Source: Saccharicrinis sp.
Lineage (GTDB): Bacteria > Bacteroidota > Bacteroidia > Bacteroidales > Marinilabiliaceae
Direction: 5' to 3'
Assembly: GCA_965230625.1 (NCBI GenBank)
Contig: CBDDLL010000001.1
Coordinates: 522,689 to 586,688, forward strand
Length of the DNA stretch: 64,000 nt
Numbering within the stretch: the stretch's first letter is position 1; each line of letters opens with the position of its first letter. Positions 1-39,047 of this stretch are shown here, in pieces. The position numbers and the translations under genes were made by a program. The notes under the pieces were generated by a model. That model saw nothing but the letters and a program-made list of their open reading frames with translations. It was not told the origin of the DNA and did not search any database.

Positions 1-2
1 AT

Positions 3-317
3 TTTCAGTACGTGGGTGGTGGATGCGGAATGAAAGATGTAGCTTATTTTATAAGTAGTTGTTTGTATGAAGAAGATTGTGAAGCATTAGAAAATCAAGT
101 ACTCGACTTTTATTTTTCAGAATTAAAAAATGCCTTAGACAGAAAGGGTAAAAACATCAACTTTAAGGATTTAGAAAACGAATGGAGAGAACTTTACCCA
201 TATGCCTGGACTGATTTTCATCGCTTTTTAAAAGGCTGGAGTCCTGGCCATTGGAAAATTAATAGTTATAGCGAAAGATTAGCACAGCAAACCATAAATA
301 AGTTAAGTCAAATATAA
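3..317 (+). CDS. C-terminal fragment (cut by window edge) of a phosphotransferase/kinase-like protein (APH / ecdysteroid-kinase-like fold)
   Basis: The frame is open from the window edge. The [16 protein letters not shown] segment resembles the DFQ..G....D..Y region of APH/EcKL-type kinases. The stop lies 1 nt before the next gene. Confidence 0.4.
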
Positions 318-318
318 A

Positions 319-1266
319 ATGCAACTTAGTCAACAAGATCTGTTAACACTTACACAAAAGGCAATATTTGCCGCTGAACAAGCAGGTAAAGAGATTAATA
401 ATAGCACTAAGAGTAACTTAAATATCTCTTTTAAAACCAGTAATACCAGCTTGGAAAATACACCAACTGGCGGCAACAGTATTGCCTCACAAATTGTTAC
501 TGAGGTTGATATTAAAAGTCAAAATGTTATTTTAGACATTTTAACTCCTACTCTATCGTTATATGATTTAGGACTTTTAACTGAAGAACAATGCGACGAT
601 AAAAGCAGATTTGAAAAAGATTTTTTTTGGTGTATAGACCCTTTGGATGGAACACTTCCTTTTACTGAAGGAAAAGAAGGATATTCAGTGAGTATAGCAT
701 TAGTTTCTCGAACAGGAATGCCGTATGTTGGTGTCGTACATAATCCCGTTAATAGCAATACTTATTGGGCATATAAAAACGGAGGTGCTTTTAAAAACCA
801 AAAGCCATGGCAGATTTCCAAAAGTACTAACCATTTTAGTTTTATAATGGATGGGAGTTTTGCTAAATCAGAACTATTTAAAAATGTACATGCCGAAATT
901 GAAAAATACGCTCATTCTAAAAACCTTAACGATATTAAGCTTATAAACCAAGGAGGAGCTGCCATGAATGCGATATGGGTAATAGAAAATAATCCCGGGT
1001 GTTATTTTAAAATCCCTAAAAAAGAACAAGGTGGAGGAAGCTTGTGGGATTTTGCAGCAACTTCTGCCATTTTTAACGAACTCAATATTCCTGCAACTGA
1101 TATATTTGGTAATACCTTAGATCTAAACAAGAAGCATTCTACCTTTATGAACCTTAATGGAGTACTATACGCTTCTAATCTCGAAATTGCATCCTTTATT
1201 CAAAACATTAATAATATTTTATTGGAGAAAGGTAAAGGGAGAAGGCAGAACGGAAAAATGTACTGA
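319..1266 (+). CDS. Inositol monophosphatase / CysQ-like phosphatase family protein
   Basis: 315-aa ORF with the family signature W-x-I-D-P-L-D-G-T (FWCIDPLDGT), an upstream acidic LTEEQCDD segment and a later GGAAMN motif. Confidence 0.75.
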   Translation: MQLSQQDLLTLTQKAIFAAEQAGKEINNSTKSNLNISFKTSNTSLENTPTGGNSIASQIVTEVDIKSQNVILDILTPTLSLYDLGLLTEEQCDDKSRFEKDFFWCIDPLDGTLPFTEGKEGYSVSIALVSRTGMPYVGVVHNPVNSNTYWAYKNGGAFKNQKPWQISKSTNHFSFIMDGSFAKSELFKNVHAEIEKYAHSKNLNDIKLINQGGAAMNAIWVIENNPGCYFKIPKKEQGGGSLWDFAATSAIFNELNIPATDIFGNTLDLNKKHSTFMNLNGVLYASNLEIASFIQNINNILLEKGKGRRQNGKMY

Positions 1267-1575
1267 AAATCGAATAAACACAACTGAGAATAAAGATTTT
1301 CTTTATGTAGATGTAACTAAATCTCCTTCACACAAAACGCCAATAAAGAAGTGTATGTCTAGACCTTAGGAATGTCATCCCTAAAGACTTTATGTGTTTA
1401 CTCGAATGTTCTCAATCCTTAGTTGAAGTTATTAGCCCACCTGCTTGAGACAAATAAGAAGTTGCAAATTGAATAAAAGTATTTTCCCATGACAATAGTG
1501 ACTCTGAATTTTTAAACTCACTTGTCGTGCAAAAGTGAATTACTTATATTGCAACCACTAATGCAATTTTAAAAA

Positions 1576-2469
1576 ATGAAGAAACATATTATTCTATATA
1601 TTTCTGCATTAATTATATTGGCAAGTTGTACTAAGCTTAAATTAGCATATAAATATTATATTAATCCATGTTATTATGATAGTCCTGTAAAACAAAACGA
1701 TTTCCCACAACATTTTATCCATGTAGATTTAAAAGATTATTACAACCAAGTAATAACTCTATCTGATTCGTTTATAGTTGACACACTTGAAAATATAGAA
1801 TATAAAGAGCACTCCTATCCTATTTTAGGAATTACCAAAAATCCTACAAGTACAAATACTAGATTATTAATTATTGCAGGAGTACATGGTAATGAAACCG
1901 GAGGTACTTTAGCTATAATTAAACTGCTAAACGACTTAAATAATAATCCATCCCGCTATAAAAACTGGACAATAAAAATAGTAACCCCCATAAATCCGGC
2001 AGGGACAATTGAGATGTCACGTTACAATGAATGTGGTTGTGATTTAAACCGTAAAATGAAGTCATCTAATCAAAAAGGTATAGTAGTTCAAAGAAGAGTT
2101 ATTGAGGAATTTAAGCCTGAATTAATAATATCATTGCATGAATCTCCATCCCAAGGATTTTTAATTCATCCAAACAAACATCTTAATAGTGACTTAAGAA
2201 ATAAAATAATAAACGATATAGAAGCTCAAAATATTAATTTGGCCACACAGGATTACTTTGGCAGAAGCTTAGTTATACCAGGTGTGTCCAAAATAAGTGG
2301 GATGATGAAATTTTTTGAAACAATTGTACAAGTTGAATCACTAAGCGACTATATAAATAAAATGGGCATTATTGAAATTACAACCGAAAGTGGATGGAAT
2401 TCGCAAGATACCTTCCAAAGAGTAAACAGTCATTTGATATTTATCGCTAGTATAATTGATAATTACTAA
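1576..2469 (+). CDS. Zinc hydrolase lipoprotein, M14-like / succinylglutamate desuccinylase-aspartoacylase (AstE/AspA) type
   Basis: Lipoprotein signal (LIILASC). The H-x-x-E zinc motif in IIAGVHGNETGG and a later SLHES histidine are typical of M14/AstE-AspA folds. Confidence 0.55.
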   Translation: MKKHIILYISALIILASCTKLKLAYKYYINPCYYDSPVKQNDFPQHFIHVDLKDYYNQVITLSDSFIVDTLENIEYKEHSYPILGITKNPTSTNTRLLIIAGVHGNETGGTLAIIKLLNDLNNNPSRYKNWTIKIVTPINPAGTIEMSRYNECGCDLNRKMKSSNQKGIVVQRRVIEEFKPELIISLHESPSQGFLIHPNKHLNSDLRNKIINDIEAQNINLATQDYFGRSLVIPGVSKISGMMKFFETIVQVESLSDYINKMGIIEITTESGWNSQDTFQRVNSHLIFIASIIDNY

Positions 2470-2732
2470 CACTACTCCAATAACATGCTAAATTTTCCAC
2501 AATATTTCGGTATCAAAAAAACTGTTTAATATCACATTATAAAACAAGGATTAAATTTTTGTTTGATTAATAATAATTATATTTTGGAAACAACTTTATA
2601 AATAAAACATATTATAATTTTCAGACATTAACCATATCATTAATATTTACTGTGCATATATACAACTAAAATGAATGATATAATAGAAATAAATGTACTG
2701 ACGAAGTGTAATTGTTGTAGCCAATTAGAGCA

Positions 2733-2873
2733 ATGAAGAAACTAATCATTGAACTGTCAAAGAATGAAGCTTTAGTATTGATTGAATTTTTATTACGATT
2801 TCGTGATAAGGACAAATTAAGCATTGAAGATGAAGCTGAAGAACAAATATTGTGGGATTTGTGTGCAATGTAA
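2733..2873 (+). CDS. Small hypothetical ORF (46 aa, MKKLIIELSKNEALVLIEFLLRF...), possibly the first segment of a broken larger gene
   Basis: ATG-initiated ORF read by hand; it is below the ORF-track cutoff. It overlaps the next open segment by ~22 nt. Confidence 0.3.
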   Translation: MKKLIIELSKNEALVLIEFLLRFRDKDKLSIEDEAEEQILWDLCAM

Positions 2874-3413
2874 TTCATCTTGAATATTTTGAAGGGTTAT
2901 TGATACATGAAGATATTGAAAGTATATCTTCTAAAATATCAACTGTTGGACTTGATTTAAGTCGATTTGATAAGAATGGTGTTCCATATGCTTCCATTGA
3001 AGATTTTATGTTACATGTTTCTTTATTTATAAGCGACCCAATTGTAGGAAATATAGTCTTAGGAGCAAGTGGAAGTGCATTGTGGGACGCAATTAAAATG
3101 TCCTCAATTTTAATATGGAGTAGAATTAAAGTAAGGCATTGGGACAGAAGATGAAAATATAAATAAACCACTTAATTTTGGATTACATGTATCAATAGAC
3201 AAAAACACAAAACTTGACTTAAAACTGGGCGGTGATTTAAGTGAAGAATTTGCATTAAAAGCTCTTGATAAGGCCATTGATTTGATAAAAACTACAAAAA
3301 AGAATGAGAACCCTGAGCCTGCTAAATTTTATACTACGAATTCTATTGGTAATTGGTGTGAATTGGATACTCTCGAAGAATTAAGAAAGAAAAGGAAGAA
3401 GAAAAAGAAATAA
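2852..3413 (+). pseudogene. Hypothetical gene interrupted by a frame change (open segments 2852-3154 and 3135-3413)
   Basis: A 100-codon segment ends at 3154. A different frame is stop-free for 93 codons (3135-3413, ending in a ...RKKRKKKKK tail) but has no usable start codon near its 5' end. Confidence 0.35.
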
Positions 3414-3426
3414 AAGAAACTATATT

Positions 3427-4392
3427 ATGAGTGACAAGAAAATTGCAGTAATTTTTGACACGAATTCATATCGAAATTTTGTTAGAGGTAAGAATTTTGA
3501 TGAAGTTATTGAACTTACGAATAAGTTAAGAAAACAAGAGAAAACAAAGGATATTAGACCTTCAGCATCTGTAATTGCTTTGATAGAAATGATTGCAAAT
3601 CTAGCAGAAGGCAAAAATGGATTTAATTATAATGATTGTTTGAACGGAATTGTTGCGATGTCTTACCATTGCTTTGATAATGTTGAGCAAGCTCCTCGAA
3701 TAATACCACACGCATATTTATTAATAGCAAAATCATTTTTTCATCAATTACCCTCACAAGTTGAAGAAAATGTGAAAAATCTTGGGGGATTGTTAAATGA
3801 CTTTAAAAATGATAAAGATATCGCTATCAGACATTATGAAAAGCAAGCTACATTTGAGAACTACAAAGAATATATTGGTAATCTTGAAACAGGGTTTTCT
3901 CAACAAATAATTGCACTTATTGATGGAGTGAAAAGTGAGATTAAAAAAGATTCTCCAGATATTTCTTCAAAACATTTGCGTGAAAAGATGTTAAATTACA
4001 TTGATAGTGATTTGTTTTATAATAATATGTCGATTGCTATATTAACAGCATTATCTAATAAAATGGGATTAAGTTATAGCCAATCTGAATTTAAAAAAAT
4101 GGGAACTTTTTTAAGTGAAAATTTTCCCTTTGCTTCTGGATTTTTCAAATGGATATGTTATGAAGTTGTAGATAAAAATATTGACTTAAATTCAAAAACA
4201 TCAAAAGAAAAAAGATGGAACTGGATTTGGGATTATAATGTGTCTTTTTCTGTCTCTAATTCAACTGTACAAGGAAGAGAAGTGATATTAGTAACTTCCG
4301 ATAAGGATTTAAAACAAATGCTGGCGGATACAGGCTTTGGTGCAAGGGTGATGGAATTAGATGATTACCTTGATTTTGTGGAATTTAAATAA
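3427..4392 (+). CDS. PIN-like nuclease-fold protein with a large central insertion (hypothetical)
   Basis: The N-terminal strand IAVIFDTNSY has an acidic D, followed by the helix ALIEMIANL with an E. The C-terminal VILVTSDKDL supplies two further acidic residues. This order matches the PIN D-E-D-D arrangement. Confidence 0.45.
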   Translation: MSDKKIAVIFDTNSYRNFVRGKNFDEVIELTNKLRKQEKTKDIRPSASVIALIEMIANLAEGKNGFNYNDCLNGIVAMSYHCFDNVEQAPRIIPHAYLLIAKSFFHQLPSQVEENVKNLGGLLNDFKNDKDIAIRHYEKQATFENYKEYIGNLETGFSQQIIALIDGVKSEIKKDSPDISSKHLREKMLNYIDSDLFYNNMSIAILTALSNKMGLSYSQSEFKKMGTFLSENFPFASGFFKWICYEVVDKNIDLNSKTSKEKRWNWIWDYNVSFSVSNSTVQGREVILVTSDKDLKQMLADTGFGARVMELDDYLDFVEFK

Positions 4393-4666
4393 AAGCTGGT
4401 AACACTGTATATACAAAATGGGCGAGATAGTAGTAAATTCAAGGGGTGCAGCTCGCTTAAAATTTTCACGGGTTGATAAGTTTGAAGCCCGCAATCGCCC
4501 ACATTTGCATATACTTGCCGTTGTATGCAAAAAAGACAGCGGTACATGGAAAATTGGATTGATAAATTGAAATTATAAACAGATAGAAAAAGAGCATTGA
4601 TTGAAGGTTGGAGCAAGAAAAAATAGTTTTTGCCCGCCCGCTTCTGCCCTTCGGGACAGTTGGGAA

Positions 4667-4733
4667 GCCAACGCACATTGCACACATTTGCAAATCGCAC
4701 AGGCTGTCGCACAAACCAAAATTTGCAAAAGAG
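4667..4733. repeat. Intergenic repeat, R family, copy R1 (upstream of the STAND gene)
   Basis: Contains GCCAACGC, CACATTTGCAAAT and AAAATTTGCAAAAGAG blocks that recur at 12632-12698. Confidence 0.5.
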
Positions 4734-4773
4734 TGCAATTATCCACGCTTAAAGAAAAAATATATCACTAAGT

Positions 4774-7700
4774 ATGAAAACTCTCGATTCGTCACAATTG
4801 AACTGGAAAAGGTATTGGTGTAAACAAGATGAACTAGTTACACTTGATGATTCTGGATTTTTATTTGACCCTGAGACTAAAGAAACTTTTTATAAGAAAA
4901 CGGATGTTGTTCCTTACAGTGAAATTTCTAATTTAAATTGTTTAGTCTTACTAGGGGAGCCTGGTATTGGAAAATCTACAACGCTTCAAAATGAATTTTT
5001 TAATCATAAAAAGACGCAGAAACCTAATGAAATATGCCTTTTTAAAAATTTAAATGAGTATGGTGACGAGAATAGGTTAATAAAGGAAATCTTTAATGCA
5101 CAAGAATTTGATAAATGGCTAAAATCTGATAAAAAATTGTATTTGTACCTTGATAGTTTTGATGAATGTTTGCTTGAAATTAAAAGGTTATTTCAAATAC
5201 TGAAAAATCAGTTTAGCAAATACAAAGAGATTTCTTCACGGTTTTATCTTAGGATAACTTGTAGGACAGGATATTGGTCAGAATGTTTAACTGTCTTTTT
5301 TAATAATCTTTACGGAACAGTTAATGTTGGAACCTATGAATTAGCCCCAATAAAAAGAAGCGATATTGAAGAAGCAGCACAACAAGTAGGACTTAATTCC
5401 AGTAGTTTTATTGAGGAAATAATCACAAAGGAAATTCAACCCCTAGCAATCAATCCATTAACATTAGACTTATTATTTCAGGCTTACCTTCATTCAAACT
5501 CTTTTCCATCTTCAAAAGAGGAGTTATTCTATTCCGCTTGCAAAAGACTTTGCACCGAACCTAATTTTGAAAGGCAGTTTCTATATCAAGCTAATTGCTT
5601 ATCGCCAGAAAAAAGAATTGCTCTTGCAGCGAGAATAGCTGCCGTAATGGTTTTCTGTGATAAAAGAGTTGTTGATTTACGAAATAACTTCGGATTATCA
5701 GATGAAGCTATTTCTATTGACATTCTGCTTGAAGGTAAAGAATACACAGATAGTTTTGAATTTCAATTTTCACAACAAGATTTAATTGAAACTATAACGC
5801 AGACTTCGCTTTTTTCAAGTAGAGGGGATTTACAGTTTGGTTTTTCTCATCTTGCGTATTCAGAATTTTTAGCAGCAAAATTTATTTCAAATCATGGATT
5901 AGAAATTGAACAGATAAAATCTTTAATTACTCTATCCACAGATGAAGAAAATAAAATAATTCCTCAGATGAAGGGTGTTGCAGCTTGGATGAGTATGATT
6001 AACTCAAAAGTTGCTGAGGATACAATAAAAAATGACCCTCAAAATGTTCTTATTGGTGACTTGGATGTGTTAAGTCTTGAATATAAAGAAAAGCTTGTAA
6101 ACTCACTTTTGGAAAAATTAAGCAACAATACAATAGATGATGGAGATTGGGGTCTACATAAGCAATATAAAAAACTAAATCATCCGAACTTATCAGAACA
6201 GTTAAAACCTTACATTGTAAATAAAGATAGTTATTTCTTAGCACGAAGAGTAGCTATTGATATTGCTGAAGCCTGTAGGTTAACTGAATTAAACTCAAAT
6301 CTAATAGATTTAGCTTTAGATGAATCAGAGGATATCCATGCAAGAAGCAATGCAGTGCATGCACTAATTGAAACTGGCGATATTGAAACCCAAAAGAAGC
6401 TAATTCCGCTTGCTACATTACCTCAAGAGCTTGACAAAGATGATGATATAAAAGGATATTCACTGAGAGCACTTTGGCCAGAAATACTAACTACTTCAGA
6501 AGTCTTTGAGGTTTTAACAACCCCTAAAAGGTCAAATTACAGTGGTGGTTATGTATTTTTCTTGTATCTATTACATGATAGTATTACAAAAGATGATTTA
6601 GATAGCGGATTATCTTGGATTTTGGAGAATATTTCATCAAATAAGGATAACCATTATAAGTTTAATAATCTGGAAGATGTAATAATAAACCTTTCATGGG
6701 AAAATGTAAATTGTATAAAAGATAAGTCCTTATTTGCCAAAGTACTTTTACTTAGAATGCAAAAGTATCAAACAATTTTTCCTACCCCCCAAAGAATAGG
6801 GAAACAATGGAATTCTCTTGTCCTCGATAACAATAACAGACTTACCATTTTTAAAGAATTGATAGAAGTAATAAAGGATGAAGAGGTTCATTTTTTAACA
6901 CACAATGAGATAATAACTAAAGATAACTTTGAAGATATTACAGATATTTTCATCAAAACTGATAGTTCAAATAGCAAACTTAAAATTGCAAAGACCTTAA
7001 CCTATTTTCAATATTCTGAATTTAGTCATATTGATAAAATACTTATGCTTTGTCAAGAACATGAAGAATTTAAAAATGCATTTAGTCATTGGCTAAAGAC
7101 CGTTGAAATTGGTTCTGATGAGGCAAACAAACTTAAACAAGGTGTTGAACAAAGGAAAGAATGGGAGAAAAAATCAAAAGAAAGAAAACAACAAAAGGAT
7201 GCTAAGAAGATTGACATGCCTTTAAGGTTGTCTAATGACTTAGAAAATTTTGAAGAAAGCAGAAATGTTAGTTCTTGGTATCAATTATTTATGGATTTAA
7301 CTCTCACTGAAACAAGTACGCATTATGGTGACGAACTTAATTCAAGTGTATTGAATTTACCTGGCTGGGAGTATGTCGATGAAAATATAAAGGAAAGAAT
7401 TATTGACTCAGCGAAATACTATATTAACAATTTTGATGATAAAAAGTCTGAATGGTTTGGTACAAATACTTTTTATCGCCCTGCTACGGCTGGTTACAAA
7501 TCATTAATCTTGCTTTATAAACTAGACAAACAATTTATAGTAGACTTAACGAGTGAAACTTGGGCTAAATGGAATCATATTTTAATAGATTATCCAGAAT
7601 CTCATGGAATTGCAGGGAAAGATGAAACTTACATTGAACTTATATCAATTTCATTTCAAAATCATAAGCAAGGTATCATAAAGGTGATATTAGAAAAAAT

Positions 7701-8991
7701 TAATAAGGCTAATAGTGGCGATGATAATTACCTAACTTTCCTAAATAAGGTTGATGCATGCATGGATAAAGATTTTCAAGATGCTTTATTAGAGAAGCTA
7801 AAGGGTAGTGAACTACGTGCACAAGTTACAAACATCCTACTCTCTAAGCTACTTGAAAAGGGAAATACTAACGCTATCTCATACAATATTGAATTGTTTA
7901 AAAATTCTAATGGTAGTGATAAAGTATTATATGCAAAATCATTAGCTAGTTTTTGCGATGAAAAAACGTGGGAAATAATTATGGAAGCCATCAAATGCGA
8001 CAAAGATTTCGGAAAAGATTTTTTCTTCTCGTTTGTAGATACTTACGTTGTTGAAATGATACCTCTTCTTGAAAGGATTTCGGAAATTCAAAGTGCAGAT
8101 TTATTTCTTTGGTTGATTGATGAATTCCCTCGTGAAGAAGACCCTGTTTTTGAGGGAGCTCATATGGTTGGTGCACGTGAAAGTGTTGGGAATTTTAGAG
8201 ACCAGATTCTAAGGATTCTTACAGGCAAAGGCACTAAAGAATCCATATTGGCACTTGATAAAATTAAAGCAGCAAGGAATGATTTAAATATAGAATTTTA
8301 TCTTGTTGCTGCTAAAAAGAATTTCCGAGCAAATAATTGGGAGCCTCTTACTCCAAACGAGTTACTAACTCTAGCAAGTAATTCTAAAGCACGTGTTATT
8401 TTAAGTTCAGCTGATTTGATGAATTTAATTCTCGATTCATTAAGTCGACTAGAATTTTCTTTACAAGGAGCTAATTCATTATCAGAAGGACTTTGGAATA
8501 AGTTAAACAGTGGCAATTATACTCCTAAATCAGAAGAGTATATATCAGATTATATTAAGCAACATTTAGATAGAGAATTAAAATCAATAGGTATTTCAAG
8601 TTATCGAGAAGTTCAACTTAGAAAACCTAGGTCAAAAGATTTTGCTGATGGTAGAAAAGGAGAAATTACAGATATTTACGTGTCCTTTACCCATCCTAAA
8701 ACTAAAGAATCTTTTAATGTTATAATTGAAGTAAAAGGTTCAAATAATAAAGAAGTAAATACGAATATGAAAGCTCAGCTCTGTGATAGATATCTTGAAA
8801 CTGACCAATATAAATACGGCATTTATTTAGTTGCATGGTATAATTGCAAGGCTTACAAAAAACAAGTTAATAAAACTCAGCAATCTACTTTATTACAAGC
8901 TAGAAAACACTATAAAGAAATGGCCAGTAAATTAGATGGTGCTGAGAAAAGTATAAAATCTTTTGTTTTAGATTGCTCATTAAGAAATTGA
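4774..8991 (+). CDS. NACHT/STAND-type P-loop NTPase with helical-repeat middle region and C-terminal PD-(D/E)xK (restriction-endonuclease-fold) domain
   Basis: Walker A GEPGIGKST (aa 61-69) and NACHT-style Walker B LYLYLDSFDE (aa 122-131). HEAT-like helical repeats occur mid-protein. The C-terminus has the ordered motifs ...ITDIYVSF...VIIEVKGS...YGIYLVAWY, typical of a PD-(D/E)xK core. Confidence 0.7.
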   Translation: MKTLDSSQLNWKRYWCKQDELVTLDDSGFLFDPETKETFYKKTDVVPYSEISNLNCLVLLGEPGIGKSTTLQNEFFNHKKTQKPNEICLFKNLNEYGDENRLIKEIFNAQEFDKWLKSDKKLYLYLDSFDECLLEIKRLFQILKNQFSKYKEISSRFYLRITCRTGYWSECLTVFFNNLYGTVNVGTYELAPIKRSDIEEAAQQVGLNSSSFIEEIITKEIQPLAINPLTLDLLFQAYLHSNSFPSSKEELFYSACKRLCTEPNFERQFLYQANCLSPEKRIALAARIAAVMVFCDKRVVDLRNNFGLSDEAISIDILLEGKEYTDSFEFQFSQQDLIETITQTSLFSSRGDLQFGFSHLAYSEFLAAKFISNHGLEIEQIKSLITLSTDEENKIIPQMKGVAAWMSMINSKVAEDTIKNDPQNVLIGDLDVLSLEYKEKLVNSLLEKLSNNTIDDGDWGLHKQYKKLNHPNLSEQLKPYIVNKDSYFLARRVAIDIAEACRLTELNSNLIDLALDESEDIHARSNAVHALIETGDIETQKKLIPLATLPQELDKDDDIKGYSLRALWPEILTTSEVFEVLTTPKRSNYSGGYVFFLYLLHDSITKDDLDSGLSWILENISSNKDNHYKFNNLEDVIINLSWENVNCIKDKSLFAKVLLLRMQKYQTIFPTPQRIGKQWNSLVLDNNNRLTIFKELIEVIKDEEVHFLTHNEIITKDNFEDITDIFIKTDSSNSKLKIAKTLTYFQYSEFSHIDKILMLCQEHEEFKNAFSHWLKTVEIGSDEANKLKQGVEQRKEWEKKSKERKQQKDAKKIDMPLRLSNDLENFEESRNVSSWYQLFMDLTLTETSTHYGDELNSSVLNLPGWEYVDENIKERIIDSAKYYINNFDDKKSEWFGTNTFYRPATAGYKSLILLYKLDKQFIVDLTSETWAKWNHILIDYPESHGIAGKDETYIELISISFQNHKQGIIKVILEKINKANSGDDNYLTFLNKVDACMDKDFQDALLEKLKGSELRAQVTNILLSKLLEKGNTNAISYNIELFKNSNGSDKVLYAKSLASFCDEKTWEIIMEAIKCDKDFGKDFFFSFVDTYVVEMIPLLERISEIQSADLFLWLIDEFPREEDPVFEGAHMVGARESVGNFRDQILRILTGKGTKESILALDKIKAARNDLNIEFYLVAAKKNFRANNWEPLTPNELLTLASNSKARVILSSADLMNLILDSLSRLEFSLQGANSLSEGLWNKLNSGNYTPKSEEYISDYIKQHLDRELKSIGISSYREVQLRKPRSKDFADGRKGEITDIYVSFTHPKTKESFNVIIEVKGSNNKEVNTNMKAQLCDRYLETDQYKYGIYLVAWYNCKAYKKQVNKTQQSTLLQARKHYKEMASKLDGAEKSIKSFVLDCSLRN

Positions 8992-9002
8992 AAATGAAAA
9001 GT

Positions 9003-9032
9003 CAGCCCACACAGCCAAGCACATTTGCAATT
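9003..9032. repeat. Intergenic repeat, R family, copy R2 (30-mer CAGCCCACACAGCCAAGCACATTTGCAATT)
   Basis: Matches 12632-12661 at 29 of 30 positions, counted by hand. Confidence 0.8.
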
Positions 9033-9034
9033 TA

Positions 9035-9067
9035 TTTGAGACAATTCCAATGGGTAGCTTAAATTTG
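9035..9067 (+). promoter_or_regulatory. Candidate Bacteroidota sigma-A promoter (-33 TTTG / -7 TAnnTTTG) for the AEP-helicase operon
   Basis: TTTG at 9035-9038, a 21-nt spacer, then TAAATTTG at 9060-9067, 4 nt before the ATG at 9072. Confidence 0.3.
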
Positions 9068-9071
9068 TAGT

Positions 9072-11213
9072 ATGACAGATACCGCAATAAATATCGAATT
9101 ATATAAATCTCTTTTCAAGGGAAGAACCGATATTTATGCTACCCGATGGGAAAAAGAAGGTAGAAGTGGTTACATGCCAGCTTATAAAGTTGATTGGACA
9201 GATTATAACAAACACAAAGCCCAAGGTGGCACGTTTAAAGACTACAAAAATAAGGAATACCTGGCATTTGATAACAAAGCCATTGAAACCCATTTGTCAG
9301 GAAAAGAAACAAATGGTATTTATCCACTCTTAGAAGACAATACTTCATTTTTTATTGCAGTAGATTTCGACAAACAAAATTGGCAAGAAACTATAATCAG
9401 ACTTTATGAAGCTTGTCAAAAGCATGACCTACCTGCACATATTGAGCGTTCACGGTCTGGCAATGGAGGACATTTATGGATATTCTTTGAACAAGCGTTT
9501 CCTGCTGAACAAAGTCGGAAATTAATGTTTGAGTTGTTAAGACATTCAAATATTATATCTCATTTTGAGAAAGAACCAAGTTTCGATCGTTTATTTCCAA
9601 ATCAGGATTATCATTCAGGTAAAGGCATGGGAAATCTTATTGCCTTACCATTACAAGGCAAATCTTTAGAACAAGGTAACTCGTGTTTTATAAATCCAGA
9701 AACATTAGAACCATATCAAGACCAATGGACATATCTTGAAACTATTAAAAAGGTTCCAACCCAAAAATTAAAAGAACTTTACGAAGACCTTTTTAATACA
9801 AAACCACAGGAAGTTTTTGTTTCCACCTCTCAAAACGGTAAAACCAGTTATCATCTTGAAATTGTAATCAGCAATCAGATTTATCTGAAACGTGCACAAT
9901 TAAGTCAAAAGTTGATTGTGTTTTTACGAGAACAATTAAACTTTTATAATTCTGATTATCTGGCAAAGAAGAACCTAGGAAAAAGTGTCTTTAATACCGA
10001 GAAATTCTTCAAGTTAATTGAAGAATCAGAAAGTGAAGTAATGATACCAAGAGGATTTTCGGCAAGTTTGGTTCAATTTTGCAATAAAGAATCGATTCCG
10101 TATAAAATAATAGACAAAAGGGAAAAGAAAGAACCGATTGATTTTGATTCCAACATTGAGTTATTAGACCATCAGGAAATCGCTCTTGAACAGGTAAGAG
10201 AAAAGGATTTTGGTGTTATTGTGTCTCCACCAGGTTCTGGAAAAACAGTAATTGGACTTGAAGTTATATCGGAGAAACGACAACCAGCATTAATTATAGT
10301 ACACCGAAAACAATTATTTGACCAGTGGATTGAACGAATACAGGATTTTCTTAAGATTCCAAAGAAAGAAATCGGACAAATTGGGAACCAGAAAAAGAAG
10401 ATTGGTAAACATATAACCATCGCTATGATTCAATCTCTATCAAGGATTGAGGACTATTCTGAAATATCTAGTGCATTTGGAACAATTATTATCGATGAGT
10501 GTCACCATATTCCTGCAAAATCATTCCGTGAAGTAATTGTAAATTTCAATGCCTTTTATCTGTATGGTTTAACTGCTACTCCGAAACGGAAAAACAATGA
10601 CCAAAAACTGATTTTTATTTATATTGGAAATATTCTGCATCAAGTTAATCAGACTGATTATCTAGCTGAGAAAAATATAAAAACTGAAATAAACATAAAG
10701 GAAACTGAACTTTTCGCTCCATTTGATTATAAGATAGATAAATATGAAACCATTTCTCGGATTCTTGTTCATGATACTCAGCGAAACTCGTTGATATTAA
10801 AAGATATTGAAGAAAATGCAAGTCGCTTTAAAACTATCCTCATTTTATCTGAACGAAAAACCCATGTCGATATTCTAAATCTTTACTTAAAAGATAAATA
10901 TGAGACTATAACGATTCATGGAGAAGATTCTGAAAGTTCGAGAAAAAGTAAAATAGAACAAATTAAGCAAGGTCATTTTAAAATCGTAATTTCGACAGGT
11001 CAATATTTTGGAGAAGGCATTGACATAAGCAATCTGGAATGTCTATTTATTGTTTATCCATTTGCTTTTGAGGGTAAATTGATTCAATACATTGGCAGAA
11101 TTCAGCGTTCTGAAAATCCACCAGTTATATTTGATTATCGAGATTCCAAAATTGATTATTTTGAAAAGATGTTTAAACAGCGGAAACGCTATTACAAGAA
11201 ATTATTAAAGTAA
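9072..11213 (+). CDS. Archaeo-eukaryotic primase (AEP/PrimPol-like) domain fused to an SF2 (type III restriction Res-like, DEAH) helicase
   Basis: N-terminus carries AEP motif I FFIAVDFD (DxD, aa 98-100), motif II SGNGGHLWIFF and GNLIALPL. C-terminus carries Walker A SPPGSGKT, IIDECHH, GLTATP, GEGIDI and QYIGRIQR. Confidence 0.75.
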   Translation: MTDTAINIELYKSLFKGRTDIYATRWEKEGRSGYMPAYKVDWTDYNKHKAQGGTFKDYKNKEYLAFDNKAIETHLSGKETNGIYPLLEDNTSFFIAVDFDKQNWQETIIRLYEACQKHDLPAHIERSRSGNGGHLWIFFEQAFPAEQSRKLMFELLRHSNIISHFEKEPSFDRLFPNQDYHSGKGMGNLIALPLQGKSLEQGNSCFINPETLEPYQDQWTYLETIKKVPTQKLKELYEDLFNTKPQEVFVSTSQNGKTSYHLEIVISNQIYLKRAQLSQKLIVFLREQLNFYNSDYLAKKNLGKSVFNTEKFFKLIEESESEVMIPRGFSASLVQFCNKESIPYKIIDKREKKEPIDFDSNIELLDHQEIALEQVREKDFGVIVSPPGSGKTVIGLEVISEKRQPALIIVHRKQLFDQWIERIQDFLKIPKKEIGQIGNQKKKIGKHITIAMIQSLSRIEDYSEISSAFGTIIIDECHHIPAKSFREVIVNFNAFYLYGLTATPKRKNNDQKLIFIYIGNILHQVNQTDYLAEKNIKTEINIKETELFAPFDYKIDKYETISRILVHDTQRNSLILKDIEENASRFKTILILSERKTHVDILNLYLKDKYETITIHGEDSESSRKSKIEQIKQGHFKIVISTGQYFGEGIDISNLECLFIVYPFAFEGKLIQYIGRIQRSENPPVIFDYRDSKIDYFEKMFKQRKRYYKKLLK

Positions 11214-11215
11214 AT

Positions 11216-12547
11216 ATGGCAGAAAGTCAAAACATAGAATGGAAAGAAAGCTGGCGTGATGAATACCTGAAATGGATTTGTGGTTTTGCAAATGCACAAG
11301 GAGGTAAAATCTATATTGGCAAAAACGATAAAGGAGAAGTTGTTGGAATTGACAATGCTAAACGATTAATGGATGATTTGCCAAATAAGATTGTAACAAA
11401 TCTCGGGATAATCTGTGATATAAACCTATTAGCTGAAAATAACAAAGAAGTCATTGAAATAATTGTTGAGCCTTATCCAAATCCTGTAAATTATAAAGGA
11501 CAGTATCACTATAGAACTGGAAGTACTAAGCAAGAGTTAAAAGGAGCTGCGTTAGATAAATTCTTGCTTCAAAAGCATGGTAAAACATGGGATAGTGTAC
11601 CTGTTCCTAAAATTGCGATTGAAGACCTTGATGGTAATGCTTTTAATATTTTCAAGAAGAAAGCTGAAAAAAGTGGTCGTGTCGACGATGAAGTTTTAAA
11701 TGACTCAAACCAATCATTATTAGAAAACCTTGACTTAATTGAAGACGACTATATTACAAGAGCAGGAGTTTTATTATTCCACCCTAAACCTGACAAGTTA
11801 TTTACAGGTTCATACATCAAAATTGGTTTTTTTGTAACCGATGATGATTTGCGTTTTCAGGATGAAATCCATGGAAATGCATTCGACCAAATAGAAAAGA
11901 CACTCGACTTACTAAAGACAAAGTACTTGAAGGCAGAAATAAGATATGAAGGAATAAGCAGAGTTGAAGAATTTCCATTTCCAGCTCCTGCATTTCGAGA
12001 GGCAATTTTGAATGCCATTGCTCATAAAGATTATAGTAGCACGACTCCTATACAGATTAGTGTTTATGAGGATAAAATGATTATTTGGAATCAAGGTCAA
12101 TTACCTGAAAATTGGACTGTAGATAAGTTGTCTGAAAAACATCCATCTATGCCATTTAATCCATTGGTTTCAAATACACTATTCCGAAGTGGATACATTG
12201 AAGCTTGGGGGCGTGGCACAATCAATATGATAAATGAATGTGCAAAGCGAAATATTCCACGTCCAAGCTACAAATACGATTTTTCTGGATTTATTGTGGA
12301 GTTTAGAAAGTTCAGTAAGGATTACTTGGAGTCACTTGGATTAAGTGAAGCATTTATCAAAATCATCCTTTATGTGCAAGAAAAAGGACAAATAGGAAAT
12401 ACTGAAGTACAAGAGATTTGTGGTGTATCGAAACGAACTGCTTCTACTTATTTAGCAGAATTAGAGAAAGATTATTTGGATAAAAAAGGAGCTACAGGTA
12501 AGGGAACTCTTTACTCATTAAAGGGGCAACAAAGGGGCAGTTATTGA
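11216..12547 (+). CDS. AlbA_2 (Schlafen-type, 'divergent AAA') domain protein with HATPase_c_4-like region and C-terminal wHTH
   Basis: N-terminus ESQNIEWKESW...ICGFANAQGGKIYIGKNDKGEVVGI is the classic AlbA_2 opening. REAILNAIAHKDY and WGRGT motifs lie in the ATPase-like part. The start is 2 nt after the helicase stop. Confidence 0.75.
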   Translation: MAESQNIEWKESWRDEYLKWICGFANAQGGKIYIGKNDKGEVVGIDNAKRLMDDLPNKIVTNLGIICDINLLAENNKEVIEIIVEPYPNPVNYKGQYHYRTGSTKQELKGAALDKFLLQKHGKTWDSVPVPKIAIEDLDGNAFNIFKKKAEKSGRVDDEVLNDSNQSLLENLDLIEDDYITRAGVLLFHPKPDKLFTGSYIKIGFFVTDDDLRFQDEIHGNAFDQIEKTLDLLKTKYLKAEIRYEGISRVEEFPFPAPAFREAILNAIAHKDYSSTTPIQISVYEDKMIIWNQGQLPENWTVDKLSEKHPSMPFNPLVSNTLFRSGYIEAWGRGTINMINECAKRNIPRPSYKYDFSGFIVEFRKFSKDYLESLGLSEAFIKIILYVQEKGQIGNTEVQEICGVSKRTASTYLAELEKDYLDKKGATGKGTLYSLKGQQRGSY

Positions 12548-12631
12548 CTTTATTTAAATCTCAAACAATAGATTATCAGAATGTTGATTGAAATTTAAAG
12601 GGGAACTAAAGGGGCAATAAGATTAAATTGC

Positions 12632-12661
12632 CAGCCCACACAGCCAAGCACATTTACAATT
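12632..12661. repeat. Intergenic repeat, R family, copy R3
   Basis: CAGCCCACACAGCCAAGCACATTTACAATT has one mismatch to 9003-9032. It is followed by the AAAATTGCAAAAGAG block (12684-12698) shared with R1. Confidence 0.8.
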
Positions 12662-12819
12662 CACACAAGCCAACGCTTGACCTAAAATTGCAAAAGAGCT
12701 TGTCTGTCTGCCACCGCTTTTTTGCCGACCCTAAAAACTATTTTTTTCGGGAACAGTAGTGCTTCGAATGAGAGGATTTTAGATTGTGCTAGATTGATAA
12801 CTTATTGACAATGAATGAA

Positions 12820-12951
12820 GCCCAGCATACAACAATAAATATAAGGCATAGGGCAAAAAGTGCTATATTTGAGCTTAGTAACATTTAATAAAAATTGTAA
12901 GGGTTTGATAGGTTAGTGTTCCAAAGTGCCCTACGACCTCATATTCGTGCC
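12820..12951. repeat. Structured intergenic repeat, C family, copy C1 (interrupted by the IS; continues at 14642)
   Basis: Aligns by eye over ~130 nt with 19372-19500. Shared blocks are AATAAATATA, AGTGCTA.ATTTGAG, ATTTAATA, GATAGGTT, ATATTC and CCGTT. Confidence 0.6.
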
Positions 12952-14641
12952 GTCAGACTGTCTAAAAACCAAATTCACTGTTGAAAACGATTCATAAGTT
13001 GTGACATGGAAATTATCGTATGGCCCTGTTGTTTTGTATCTTATAGATATGAAATTCATACAAGGACAAAACAGGGAACAAACACATCTTTTTCCAATTT
13101 CTTTGGATCAGGCCATTGAACCAGACAATGAAGTGCGTATAATAGATTTGTTTGTAGATAGCCTTGATATTGGCAACATGGGTTTTGATGTTGGGTTTGT
13201 TGAAAACGGGAGGCCTGCGTATCATCTGTCCGACTTACTAAAACTCTACATTTATGGGTATATGAATCGCATCCGTTCGTCGCGACAGTTAGAAAAGGAA
13301 AGTAAACGTAATATTGAGGTGATGTGGTTAATACATTCACTTTCGCCCGATCACAATACCATCTCAAACTTCCGCAAAAACAACCCCAAAGCCATAAAAA
13401 AGGTATTTAGGGAAACAGTACGCATAGTCCGTAATTTCGAACTTATTGGCGGCAAATAACTGGCAGGCGATAGCACAAAGCTACGTGCACAGAACAGTAA
13501 AAAAAACAACTATAACCAAAAGAAAATAGACCGGCATATCGAATATATTGAGAACAAAATAGATGAACATAACAAGGCTATTGCGGAAAAAGATGGGGAT
13601 AAGCAGGAGCATAAAAAAGAAATAGAGAAACACGAAAACCGAAAAGAAGGCTATGAGCAGTTGGAGCAACAGTTAAAGCAATCCGGTCTGTCGCAAATAT
13701 CCACTTCCGACCCTGATAGTCGTCACATGATTACCCGTAACAATATAATGGAAGTAGCCTATAATGCCCAAACTACGGTTGACGACAAAAACAACCTACC
13801 GATAGATTACAAAGTGACCAATGCCAACGACTGCAAGGCCATGGAAAATATGCTTCAAAGAGCCAAAAGTATTCTGGGCACCAATAAATTTACGGCCTTG
13901 TACGATAAGGGATATCATACGGGATCGGAATTTGATATGGCGGATAAATTAGGTATAAAAACAATTGTAGCCATTCCCGGCGTGGCAGCTCAAGCTCCAG
14001 ACCCGGCATATAATGTCGAGCACTTTAAATATGATAATTTGGATGATTGTTACATTTGCCCCAGGGGTCACCGAATGATCATCACCGGAAAATTACACCA
14101 AGCCAAAACTTATCAATTTAAGCGGTACACTACTAAAGCATGCAAAAGTTGTGAGGATAAATATAAATGTAGTAAAGCAAAGTATGGTAAAGCCATACAG
14201 CGTAGCGAATATCAAGAGCTCATCAAGTTAAATAAGGATAGAGTAAATAATAACCAAAATTATTACAGGCGTCGACAGGCCATTGTCGAACACCCCTACG
14301 GCACAATCAAACGGCAATGGGGATTCAATTACATTATAACAAAGAAATTTATCCATCGAGCCGAAGCAGACCTTGGCCTGATAATGAATGCCTATAATCT
14401 AAGAAGGCTTATCAATATCATAGGAAAAGAGCAGCTGGTGAAATACCTGCAAAGTATAGTCTCTGCGTTGCTAAATCAAAACAGCCTAAATTGTTTCTTC
14501 TCGAATATTGTAAGCTATTTAATTATCAAAATAAATTATTATCATTATTTTCAGTTCGTAAATAAAACGGCAATAAGGAGCTAAAAACGGCATAAAAAAC
14601 TATGAATCATTAAATGTTTTTGAGTTTTTAGACAGACTGAC
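12952..14641 (+). mobile_element. IS1182-family insertion sequence (1690 bp)
   Basis: 18-bp terminal inverted repeats: GTCAGACTGTCTAAAAAC (12952-12969) against the reverse complement of 14624-14641, GTCAGTCTGTCTAAAAAC, with 1 mismatch. It encloses a DDE transposase reading frame. Confidence 0.8.
13049..14584 (+). pseudogene. IS1182-family transposase interrupted by a single in-frame TAA (13457-13459)
   Basis: ORFs 13001-13459 and 13661-14584 are in the same frame. The stretch 13460-13660 is stop-free and reads LAGDSTKLRAQNSKKNN.... The N-terminus MKFIQGQNREQTHLFP is typical of this family. Confidence 0.75.
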
Positions 14642-14717
14642 GTTGGGCATAATTTTGTCACATACATAACAGGCAGACACATAGTCTGATAAATACTAAT
14701 TATTATAATTTATTTAA

Positions 14718-15239
14718 ATGAAAACTTATTTTATCCTTATTGCTCTGTGTAGTATTTTTTTAATTGATTGTAATGCTCAAAAATGTGAAGTTACTGAAGA
14801 TCCGTTTACAAACGAAAAAGTAATATCATTTAACTGGAAAAATGGAATCGTTTTTTACGAATTAAAAAGTGATAAAATCAAATTTGGAATCACGTGTAAC
14901 TACAATGGTGATCGAGATGTAATTATTGAAAAAGGACATAAAGCATTTTTTAAGTTTGATAATGGAGAAACGATGGAGTTAACTACATGTGTTGATTCTC
15001 ATCCAGACACAAATATTAGTGCCTCTCAATATGGCGCTGCTGTATTTACATATTATACTTTCACATTTTCCCTATCAAAAGATCAATTAAATAAGCTAGC
15101 AGTTAATAAGACGACAGCAGTTAGGTATCCTGATACAAATGGTGAATATTTAGATGTCATTTTAAAAGGAAAGAGGAACAAGTATACTAAAGCGGTACTT
15201 GAAGGTGGACAATGCATTTTAAGTAATTTAATGAATTAA
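14718..15239 (+). CDS. Hypothetical secreted protein (173 aa)
   Basis: N-terminal signal peptide (MKTYFILIALCSIFLIDCNAQ). No family recognised. Confidence 0.5.
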   Translation: MKTYFILIALCSIFLIDCNAQKCEVTEDPFTNEKVISFNWKNGIVFYELKSDKIKFGITCNYNGDRDVIIEKGHKAFFKFDNGETMELTTCVDSHPDTNISASQYGAAVFTYYTFTFSLSKDQLNKLAVNKTTAVRYPDTNGEYLDVILKGKRNKYTKAVLEGGQCILSNLMN

Positions 15240-15645
15240 TACATTCATAATAAAACTATGCCCAATAAATAGGACTATGAGCGGTCTGTAAGACCAAGCG
15301 TGGTAGTCCATGTTGGACTACATCCCGGTTTCTATTTAACCTATGTACTTATCGACGCTTTTTTATATTCTGAAGTAGGTAGAAGGTGTTGTTAAGTGGT
15401 CTAAAAGAATTGTAAATATAAGGTAGAAAAAAGAAGAGATCAAGTGCTTTTTGCGAAGATAGGGTACTGTATTTTTTTAGAGCGAAGGTGATTGGATATA
15501 GAAAGCAGATTAAATACATTTTGTTGTTTGTTCTGAAAAAGTACATTTGCTACATTTGACCAAAGCTATCCCGGAGGGATTTAGTTCAACAATTAATAAA
15601 AAATACTACCTGTCATTAGATTAATATTTGTAATAAAAAAATAAA

Positions 15646-16092
15646 GTGAAAGTTAAAAAGCTCATATGGACTTTAGTTGGACTTGCGATTTTATCCTTAG
15701 TTTTTCTTTGGTTATATTTTGTTGTAGGTTTTAGTTCAACTTATCTGCCACTTGAAAAATATTACAGTAATATTACTCAAAATGAAATAAAGCAAAGACT
15801 TGAAATACTAGATTCAACGCAAGGCTTTAATGTCAATATTACTGATACAACAGGACAATACCCAAAAGAATATAATGTGTATTTTAAAATTACAGATAAC
15901 AATAATTGTGAATACCATTTAAAATTTCATCTAGATAAATCATTAATTCATAAAGAGCAGACTGAAATATCCCTATTAGGAGTATTTGACAGAGACAAGA
16001 ATATTGGAGGTTATAGTAAATTAGACTCTAAATATATTATTCATCTTATTGACTGTTTTGAAAAGGAAGTACTTCCAAGAATAAATAACTAA
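15646..16092 (+). CDS. Hypothetical membrane-anchored protein (148 aa, GTG start)
   Basis: One N-terminal TM helix (LIWTLVGLAILSLVFLWLYFVVGF). No family recognised. Confidence 0.4.
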   Translation: MKVKKLIWTLVGLAILSLVFLWLYFVVGFSSTYLPLEKYYSNITQNEIKQRLEILDSTQGFNVNITDTTGQYPKEYNVYFKITDNNNCEYHLKFHLDKSLIHKEQTEISLLGVFDRDKNIGGYSKLDSKYIIHLIDCFEKEVLPRINN

Positions 16093-16357
16093 TGCCAATA
16101 ACTAAGCGTCCTGCCTGTTTGTAAAACAGAAGCTGGACGCAGTGTTGACGAAAACCGGGAAAAAGTCTCTGATATGTTATGGAGATTGATATATTTTTAT
16201 TGAGGTCTTAGTGAGATGCTTTTAAAGTATAGTTTAAGTAAAAGGTGTACTGATTATAATAGAACTTTCAAAAAAAAAGGATTTATAGTCTTTTCTGTCA
16301 TGTCATTTGGACTTATTTTTCTGTATAGCACATAGCTATTCTATTCACCCATGGGTG

Positions 16358-17482
16358 TTATTTTAAATCTATCATATAATCAGCTCCAAGAGGAACTACT
16401 TTATTAGGAGGTCCCCTGATATCGAACCGTGCAATGATAACCAGGTCTCCAACTTTGCAACAAGGACATTTGTTGTGCCTTAAAGGTTCTCGATGATGGA
16501 TATTCACTTTACCCAGCTGGGTTTCTATTATTGCTAATACTTTACGCTTAACAGCAGAAGCCAAAATTCCATAATGCCTGATACGCACAAAACCTTTGGG
16601 TAATATGTGCAGGGCAAAACGCTTTATAAAGTCATGGCTACTTAAAGTGAGCTTATACTTTTGGCCACCCTTTCTGTAATCCTTGGCTTCAAAAGTCACC
16701 TTTTGGTTTTCTATATTCTTGATACGGTGATTTGATATTGCGATTTTATGGGTATACCTGCCAAGGTATTCAATAACTTGTGAGGGACCATAAAAAGGGT
16801 GCTTGCAATAGATAACCCATTTCTTTTTAAACAGTTGTTTGTACAAAGCTTCCAGTTGTGGCCATTCTTTTCTAAGAGATGCTATAAACTTTGCCCTAAA
16901 CACCTTTGACATAGTCTTAACCGGGAAAAGAAATTTATCTTTTCCCCTGGCATTTTTCCATTGGTTAGAAGAAGTAATTCCGCCACCAGGTACAATACAG
17001 TGCAGGTGCGGGTGTAACCATAGGTTTTGTCCCCATGTGTGTAATATGGAAACCATGCCAGTTTTTGCACCCAAAAACCTGTGATTAGCAGCAAAGCCCT
17101 GGATTACCTGCCAACTGACTTTAAACAGTAAGTTATAAAGTTTATCTGGCATAAAAACTGCGAGTTTATTGAGTTCACAGGGCAAGGTAAATACTATATG
17201 ATAGTAAGTCGTATTTAGCAGTTCTTCTCCGCATTTGCGTATCCATAGCTCCTTTTTATGCCCCTGGCATTTGGGACAATGACGGTTACGGCAACTATTG
17301 TAACTAATATGCAGTTTATGGCATTGAGGATTGGTGCATTGGTCAACATGGCCGCCCATTAGGTAAGTGCGGCAGATTTCAATGGCATACAATGTTCTTA
17401 GTTTCCATTTGTTAAGAACCAACTTGTGTAGCCTATGATGTTCTTGCTGTAGCACCTGTGCTACTTCAAAGGCTGGTTTCAT
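16358..17482 (-). CDS. IS91-family transposase (zinc-binding N-terminal domain + Y2 HUH transposase)
   Basis: Cys-rich N-terminus (CTNPQCHKLHISYNSCRNRHCPKCQ), an HTWGQNLWLHPHLHCIVPGGG HUH-like segment, and YLGRYTHKIAISNHR with the catalytic Tyr region. Confidence 0.8.
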   Translation of the reverse strand: MKPAFEVAQVLQQEHHRLHKLVLNKWKLRTLYAIEICRTYLMGGHVDQCTNPQCHKLHISYNSCRNRHCPKCQGHKKELWIRKCGEELLNTTYYHIVFTLPCELNKLAVFMPDKLYNLLFKVSWQVIQGFAANHRFLGAKTGMVSILHTWGQNLWLHPHLHCIVPGGGITSSNQWKNARGKDKFLFPVKTMSKVFRAKFIASLRKEWPQLEALYKQLFKKKWVIYCKHPFYGPSQVIEYLGRYTHKIAISNHRIKNIENQKVTFEAKDYRKGGQKYKLTLSSHDFIKRFALHILPKGFVRIRHYGILASAVKRKVLAIIETQLGKVNIHHREPLRHNKCPCCKVGDLVIIARFDIRGPPNKVVPLGADYMIDLK

Positions 17483-38973: not shown

Positions 38974-39047
38974 GGTAGCCGCACCAGGACTCGAACCTGG
39001 ATCTATTGTTTAGGAAACAACTATTCTATCCCTTGAACTATGCAGCC
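38974..39047 (-). tRNA. tRNA-Arg (anticodon CCT)
   Basis: Hand-folded cloverleaf: acceptor GGCTGCA/TGCGGCT (two G-U pairs), D stem GTTC/GAAT, anticodon stem GTTGT/ACAAT with loop TT-CCT-AA, and T arm CCAGG-TTCGAGT-CCTGG. Discriminator is A, and CC (not CCA) is encoded. Confidence 0.85.
38975..38987. repeat. Direct repeat GTAGCCGCACCAG, proximal att copy (inside tRNA-Arg 3' end)
   Basis: Identical to 32488-32500. Confidence 0.65.

Follow-up and report, generated by a model that had tools for sequence, protein, structure and literature searches.

A NACHT protein of Saccharicrinis sp. with a predicted C-terminal PD-(D/E)xK nuclease and kinship to the Erebus/Hypnos antiphage proteins

Introduction

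Antiviral STAND proteins of bacteria typically carry an N-terminal effector, a central nucleoside triphosphatase (NTPase) and a C-terminal sensor (PMC13581612). What, then, is encoded by a gene that appears to read in the opposite order? The gene in question lies at 4774-8991 on the forward strand of a 64,000-nucleotide stretch of Saccharicrinis sp. contig CBDDLL010000001.1 (hereafter the window; all coordinates count from window position 1 unless a locus is named). A first-pass annotation of this DNA had read its product as a NACHT NTPase with the effector at the C-terminus. In this work, we ask whether that reading holds, to which class of protein the gene belongs, and whether it works alone or with its neighbours. 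Our answer is that the protein is very probably a stand-alone antiviral STAND of the Erebus/Hypnos (Avs10) type.

Erebus, Hypnos and bNACHT64 have recently been grouped as Avs10 (Nature 2026, PMC13581612; preprint 10.64898/2026.01.04.697583). Avs10 proteins sense phage major capsid proteins and cause cell death in an effector-dependent manner, and structure models show their sensor wrapped around the HK97-fold A-domain (PMC13581612). C-terminal effectors have also been described before in bacterial NACHT proteins by Kibby et al., with restriction endonucleases and GT4 glycosyltransferases among the effectors. In particular, these authors predict that, through the helical/toroidal repeats, a C-terminal effector comes to lie where an N-terminal one would sit.

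Gene boundaries and domain architecture

The features of the gene, all on the forward strand, are as follows.

4774-8991: complete, uninterrupted open reading frame with an ATG start, coding for NACHT, alpha-solenoid and PD-(D/E)xK parts in a single polypeptide (1405 amino acids plus stop)
4774-4908: short conserved N-terminal extension (residues 1-45), with W11, R13, W15, G28 and P33 at least 92% conserved
4909-5358: NACHT nucleotide-binding domain (residues ~46-195) with five parallel strands, placed by motifs, model and NLR fold matches
4954-4980: Walker A motif GEPGIGKST (residues 61-69)
5137-5166: Walker B motif and NACHT signature D127-S-F-D130-E131 (within residues 122-131)
5359-5898: helical and winged-helix part of the NACHT module (residues ~196-375), from the secondary structure of the model and the alignment of residues 47-373 to the EruA profile
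5905-8358: HEAT-like alpha-solenoid, the presumed sensor (residues ~378-1195), from the model and fold matches
8401-8988: C-terminal PD-(D/E)xK domain of restriction-endonuclease fold (residues ~1210-1405)
8533-8535, 8671-8673, 8728-8730, 8734-8736 and 8776-8778: codons of the key nuclease residues E1254, D1300, E1319, K1321 and Q1335

A search of a large protein collection returned more than 974 homologous clusters (at 90% identity), the best 120 of which are 31-88% identical to the query. Nearly all of these 120 are ~1400 amino acids long and they span 99-100% of the query. This confirms the start and stop given above and shows that the C-terminal region belongs to the protein as a conserved, integral part. 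With its 45 residues, the N-terminal extension is too short to hold an effector domain.

The NACHT assignment of the first-pass annotation, with a P-loop near the N-terminus and a Walker B motif LYLYLDSFDE, holds well: the motifs are where they were quoted (residues 61-69 and 122-131) and the fold is NLR-like. The D127-S-F-D130-E131 stretch fits the Walker B signature D[GAS]hDE, which sets NACHT proteins apart from other STAND NTPases (Kibby et al.). Among homologues having the respective column, K67 and D127 are each conserved in 119/119, D130 in 118/119 and E131 in 116/119. An AlphaFold2 model of residues 1-1200, built on 48 sequences, reached a mean predicted local distance difference test score (pLDDT) of 87.8. 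It shows the five-stranded P-loop domain, then helical and winged-helix elements to residue ~375, and an unbroken alpha-solenoid to ~1195. The ~1100 amino acids of repeats that had been placed after the P-loop are thus the rest of the NACHT module followed by a solenoid of ~820 amino acids.

When this model was compared to the Protein Data Bank (PDB) using Foldseek, the best matches were the eukaryotic NLRs NLRC4 (E 2.7e-7), NLRP3 and NOD2, followed by the HEAT-repeat proteins CAND1, karyopherins and SF3B1. The resemblance to NLRs is that of the NTPase module, including the D[GAS]hDE Walker B. Outside it the two differ, since NLRs have a leucine-rich repeat sensor and an N-terminal adaptor domain, and the window protein has a HEAT-like solenoid and a C-terminal enzyme. 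The Pfam NACHT model gave no match above its gathering score, and Pfam returned only sub-threshold matches (NPHP3_N, nSTAND3, AAA_14 and HEAT_2). The NACHT assignment consequently relies on motif and fold, together with the NCBIfam matches described below.

The C-terminal nuclease domain

Two short motifs, ITDIYVSF (residues 1298-1305) and IIEVKGS (residues 1317-1323), had suggested a PD-(D/E)xK core in the last ~150 amino acids. The proposal was to be dropped if the region did not model as such a fold or if its D/E/K residues were not conserved. The region does model as a restriction-endonuclease fold, and the residues are invariant among homologues, so neither ground for dropping it applies. 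The AlphaFold model of residues 1100-1405 (the C-terminal 306 amino acids) has a pLDDT of 85 and an alpha-beta-beta-beta-alpha-beta core, made up of a helix (1254-1272), three strands (1274-1278, 1301-1306 and 1313-1322), a second helix (1331-1340) and a last strand (1348-1355). In this model D1300 sits at the start of the second strand and E1319-x-K1321 lies on the third. Foldseek against the PDB placed BsaWI first (E 2e-4), followed by McrC, BstEII, BamHI, SwaI, PspGI, PaqCI, HamA and MspJI.

Conservation points the same way. Among the homologues having the columns (115-117 of them), E1254 is present in 117/117, D1300, E1319 and K1321 in 115/115 each, and Q1335 is likewise invariant. The extent of the domain had been set too short. 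It comprises ~195 amino acids (nucleotides ~8401-8988), because the E1254-bearing helix belongs to it, as do a hairpin and an N-terminal helix. Altogether, the model supports the prediction that the C-terminal domain is an intact PD-(D/E)xK nuclease.

Kinship with Erebus EruA and Hypnos HyoA

Which known proteins, if any, share this order of domains? Two NCBIfam models, both named "NACHT domain-containing antiphage protein", match the window protein: EruA (NF058535; E 6.7e-77, 260 bits) and HyoA (NF058534; E 4.8e-54, 183.5 bits). What decided the question of layout was a scan of individual segments of the protein against these profiles. The first 400 amino acids align to EruA profile positions 17-305. 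The last 306 amino acids, taken alone, align to positions 1050-1318 of 1318 in EruA (E 1e-18) and to positions 1150-1422 of 1430 in HyoA (E 1e-12). The C-terminal domain of the window protein is therefore present, at the corresponding end, in EruA and HyoA as well.

Plasmids were also searched by tblastn for a named EruA, and the proteins retrieved were all annotated as 'hypothetical protein'. Two of these hits, one from Vibrio campbellii and one from Pantoea ananatis, proved to be EruA-like by NCBIfam (777 and 772 bits, over the full profile length). Their C-termini can be aligned to that of the window protein, without any change in the E...D...ExK...Q residues. Moreover, hhalign of the family profile against the EruA-like Vibrio protein gave 99.9% probability (E 2.4e-32) with a collinear alignment of residues 26-1335 of 1343. 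The collinearity and the shared residues make the window protein an end-to-end homologue of Erebus-type proteins. From the profiles and the EruA-like sequences, the C-terminal domain would serve as effector in Erebus and Hypnos too.

The likeness to Erebus EruA is extensive: both have a short N-terminal lead, a NACHT module, a long helical sensor and a C-terminal PD-(D/E)xK domain, with homology at both ends and over much of the sensor, the same catalytic residues and a single-gene system. In contrast, identity to the EruA-like proteins is only ~19-24%, the window protein is ~60-90 amino acids longer, and the hosts differ (Bacteroidota and environmental phyla for the window subfamily, Proteobacteria for EruA). 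Hypnos HyoA is alike in length (a 1430-position profile versus 1405 amino acids), in its N-terminal NACHT and in the aligned C-terminal domain, with a weaker match than that of EruA. Avs1-5 (AVAST) and bNACHT25-type STANDs also combine a STAND NTPase, a repeat sensor and a PD-(D/E)xK domain in one polypeptide, and are likewise presumed to oligomerize. Their Mrr or Cap4 nuclease, however, is N-terminal, and the effector of the window protein sits at the opposite end.

The claim of a reversed layout can thus be kept in one sense and not in another. The order is opposite to the textbook effector-NTPase-sensor arrangement, but the implication that it is unusual or uncharacterized is not supported: EruA and HyoA are collinear with the window protein and Kibby et al. 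provide the precedent. That is, the reverse layout is a described feature of a validated family and not a new one.

Several results weigh against placing the protein so close to Erebus and Hypnos, or against its nuclease. The bit scores fall far under the equivalog cut-offs (260 versus 1000 bits for EruA, 183.5 versus 1200 bits for HyoA). The protein is hence a homologue and not an equivalog, and function cannot be transferred to it as it could to an equivalog. Sensor residues 814-1099, scanned alone, matched no NCBIfam profile, neither EruA nor HyoA, so the trigger may differ from theirs. The nuclease matches found by Foldseek are moderate (best E 2e-4) with low TM-scores, in part because ~110 amino acids (a third) of the query model are solenoid. 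A Pfam scan of the last 205 amino acids at E up to 10 gave only a spurious ART-PolyVal match, and sequence and profile searches of the PDB gave no relevant match for the nuclease domain or the whole protein. As these searches yielded nothing useful, the nuclease assignment rests on the model, the Foldseek matches and the residue conservation. Finally, PADLOC at E up to 0.01 did not match the NACHT protein to AVAST or any other defence model. The PADLOC database dates from 2023, before the report on Erebus and Hypnos, for which PMC13581612 gives the year 2024 in its reference list. Taken together with the end-to-end homology, the sequence scores place the window protein in a distinct, widespread subfamily beside EruA and HyoA, under both cut-offs.

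Distribution and exchange of the C-terminal module

Among ~185,000 species genomes (one genome per species), 381 loci carry the family. They fall in Bacteroidota, Cyanobacteria, Planctomycetota, Chloroflexota, Acidobacteriota, Bacillota, Desulfobacterota and Nitrospirota, as well as in archaea (Methanosarcinales/ANME-2 and Ca. Argoarchaeum). The architecture is shared across many phyla: in 45 complete open reading frames the P-loop is near the N-terminus, the median distance from P-loop to ExK is 1256 amino acids, and ExK lies 91 amino acids before the stop.

Some homologues keep the NACHT-sensor part and end differently. For example, homologues on Rhizobium pTi plasmids (3989-8902 of locus L005, 1637 amino acids) match the query to residue ~1199 and continue into a GT4-conflict glycosyltransferase (E 7e-114). 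A homologue on plasmid epsilon of Nostoc PCC 7120 (3983-7891 of locus L006, 1302 amino acids) ends in a zinc ribbon. That one NACHT-sensor chassis carries a nuclease, a GT4 enzyme or a zinc ribbon supports a reading of the C-terminal position as an exchangeable effector slot. As to their surroundings, the Rhizobium homologue is annotated 'glycosyltransferase' and adjoins SIR2 and integrase genes, and the Nostoc homologue is flanked by two other NACHT genes.

Another reading of the C-terminal domain is that it binds DNA, senses or tethers, with the output of the system elsewhere (e.g. ATP depletion or the recruitment of another factor). Many PD-(D/E)xK domains are inactive binders, the protein has no N-terminal effector for comparison, and the small 'hybrid' C-terminal domains described by Kibby et al. 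may tether bacterial NACHT proteins. We nevertheless hold this to be highly improbable. E1254, D1300, E1319, K1321 and Q1335 stay invariant at 31-88% identity and recur in the EruA-like proteins, which fits selection for catalysis, and the Rhizobium homologues have an enzyme at the very same position. We thus keep to the reading of the C-terminal domain as a nuclease effector.

One further variant was observed in the family. Identical 792-amino acid proteins are encoded in two metagenome-assembled genomes, those of Desulfobacteraceae Eth-SRB1 and Ca. Argoarchaeum ethanivorans (1280-3655 of locus L067 and 4561-6936 of locus L069). They keep the P-loop and the nuclease and lack the counterpart of query residues ~148-763, a stretch that takes in half of the sensor and the greater part of the NACHT module. 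Both assemblies apparently come from one project (adjacent accessions RPGP01 and RPGO01, shared 'Eth' labels), and the identity of the two proteins could reflect duplicate binning or the recent transfer of a variant with an internal deletion.

Genomic neighbourhood and the stand-alone question

Does the NACHT gene act alone? Downstream of it are the following genes.

9072-11213, forward strand: AEP-TOTE primase-polymerase (Pfam E 1.7e-86) fused to a ResIII/superfamily 2 helicase
11216-12547, forward strand: protein with Schlafen-AlbA_2, HATPase_c_4 and winged helix-turn-helix domains
13001-14584, forward strand: DUF772/DDE transposase split into two open reading frames, probably frameshifted
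16358-18252, reverse strand: IS91-family Y2 transposase overlapping a tyrosine recombinase gene

The first two genes are separated by 2 nucleotides and are apparently translationally coupled as a two-gene unit. On this pair PADLOC matched only models for a CRISPR-associated PrimPol, a type IV restriction endonuclease helicase and pAgo-associated proteins, with no named system. The two genes may form a defence module of their own, separate from the NACHT gene. With the transposase/integrase genes at 13001-18252 further downstream, this part of the window forms a small islet of defence genes and mobile elements.

The arrangement could also mean that the NACHT protein works in one system with the products of 9072-11213 and 11216-12547, for instance as the repeat sensor of a TOTE-like system. 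TOTE stands for TPR, OB, TBP and Effector, and its systems do include a repeat (TPR) component (bioRxiv 10.1101/2025.09.15.676423). The three genes lie on the same strand, with 80 nucleotides from the NACHT stop to the next start, and the 10-mer CACATTTGCA is limited to the intergenic regions upstream of the NACHT and AEP genes. The surroundings of other family members argue strongly the other way. Within 6-8 kb of the NACHT gene, an AEP-helicase homologue was found at 0 of 88 related loci and a Schlafen-like homologue at 2 of 88. The neighbours also differ in each context examined. The homologue of Moorella sp. Hama-1 (1-17124 of locus L003, 33% identical) is in the middle of a BREX-type cluster in the order BrxC/PglY, PglX methyltransferase, DUF3644, NACHT, SNF2 helicase and PglZ. 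A 68% identical homologue (locus L007) adjoins a PIN toxin-antitoxin pair and has the same IS91 and integrase pair downstream as the window, and another (locus L008) lies among housekeeping genes. TPR-CSD and TBP families, which define TOTE, were not detected among the neighbour genes scanned around the NACHT gene, and the NCBIfam names of EruA and HyoA present each of them as an antiphage protein by itself. For lack of co-occurrence (0 of 88 loci) we rejected a TOTE-like operon that includes the AEP helicase, and we consider a multi-gene system of any such kind very improbable. As its contexts differ everywhere and the AEP helicase is linked to it at none of these 88 loci, the NACHT gene very probably acts alone.

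As an observation in its own right, CACATTTGCA has three copies in the 64 kb, all on the forward strand (4500-4509, 4683-4692 and 9020-9029). The expected number is 0.19, and 0 of 100 shuffles reach three. Every copy is intergenic and just upstream of these two genes only, with an AGCC-rich stretch before each, and the 10-mer may act as a promoter element of the Bacteroidota type or as an operator common to both genes. A promoter/terminator scan gave counts at shuffle level; its sigma-70 consensus is not suited to Bacteroidota.

The contexts bear on one more reading, namely a STAND with no part in defence, e.g. a regulator or a housekeeping scaffold. Non-immune STAND clades are interspersed with defence clades (PMC13581612), and the homologue of locus L008 keeps company with housekeeping genes. 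Set against these are the intact nuclease module, the homology to named antiphage proteins, a patchy distribution over bacteria and archaea that includes plasmids, the Moorella homologue within BREX, and the position of the window gene next to mobile elements and other defence-type genes. We regard a non-defence role as extremely improbable, and an antiviral one as the reading to build on.

A proposed mechanism

How might such a protein work? By analogy with Avs10 and other Avs or bNACHT proteins, the resting state would be an autoinhibited monomer. The ~820-amino acid alpha-solenoid would bind a phage protein, which in the tested Avs10 relatives is the HK97-fold major capsid protein. Binding would free the NACHT module to bind ATP (through K67, D127 and D130/E131) and to oligomerize. 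Oligomerization would cluster the C-terminal PD-(D/E)xK domains into an active nuclease (E1254, D1300 and E1319-x-K1321), which would degrade DNA and abort the infection. The trigger, the oligomerization, the DNA substrate and the abortive outcome are all drawn from these relatives.

The identity of the trigger deserves particular caution. Taken by themselves, residues 814-1099 gave no match to the EruA profile or to that of HyoA, and residues ~600-800 of the solenoid are the least conserved stretch of the family. For these reasons we consider it somewhat less likely than not that the major capsid protein, specifically, is the trigger. A more speculative proposal, which we think rather unlikely, is that the subfamily is functionally distinct: its distal sensor (residues ~814-1100) would sense a phage component other than the major capsid protein, and the ~1256-amino acid geometry would return the nuclease to the NACHT hub in a way unseen in solved STAND assemblies.

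A second STAND gene and other features of the window

The window holds further genes of interest at some distance from the NACHT gene.

32766-36122, forward strand: second STAND protein (1118 amino acids), with an N-terminal Mrr-like D...ExK region, a P-loop GGSGVGKT near residue 345 and C-terminal TPRs
37291-38214, reverse strand: tyrosine integrase
38974-39047, reverse strand: tRNA-Arg

The first-pass annotation had noted that this second STAND has the usual layout and that one stretch of DNA consequently carries both polarities. This is borne out, with the Mrr-like region at the N-terminus and the TPRs at the C-terminus. The Mrr-like region (...WDGGKDF...AECK...) matches Pfam Mrr_cat with E 0.0019, under the gathering score, and the protein has no family match in PADLOC, NCBIfam or the PDB. 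With hhalign, no relationship was detected between the profile of the C-terminal nuclease of the NACHT protein and the Mrr-like N-terminus of the second STAND, so neither nuclease module is a recent copy of the other. Given the nearby tyrosine integrase and tRNA-Arg, the second STAND may lie on an integrated island.

Two reverse-strand open reading frames further on (40027-42096 and 44146-46200, 689 and 684 amino acids) have weak coiled-coil-type Pfam matches (Filament and DUF4407) and may be paralogues.

Concluding remarks

The gene at 4774-8991 leaves the current picture of STAND immunity unchanged. What it offers is a confident annotation for a large family that is mostly labelled 'hypothetical protein' and that Pfam and PADLOC v2 overlook. 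It also shows that the Erebus/Hypnos architecture reaches far past Proteobacteria, into Bacteroidota, cyanobacteria and methane-/ethane-oxidizing archaea.

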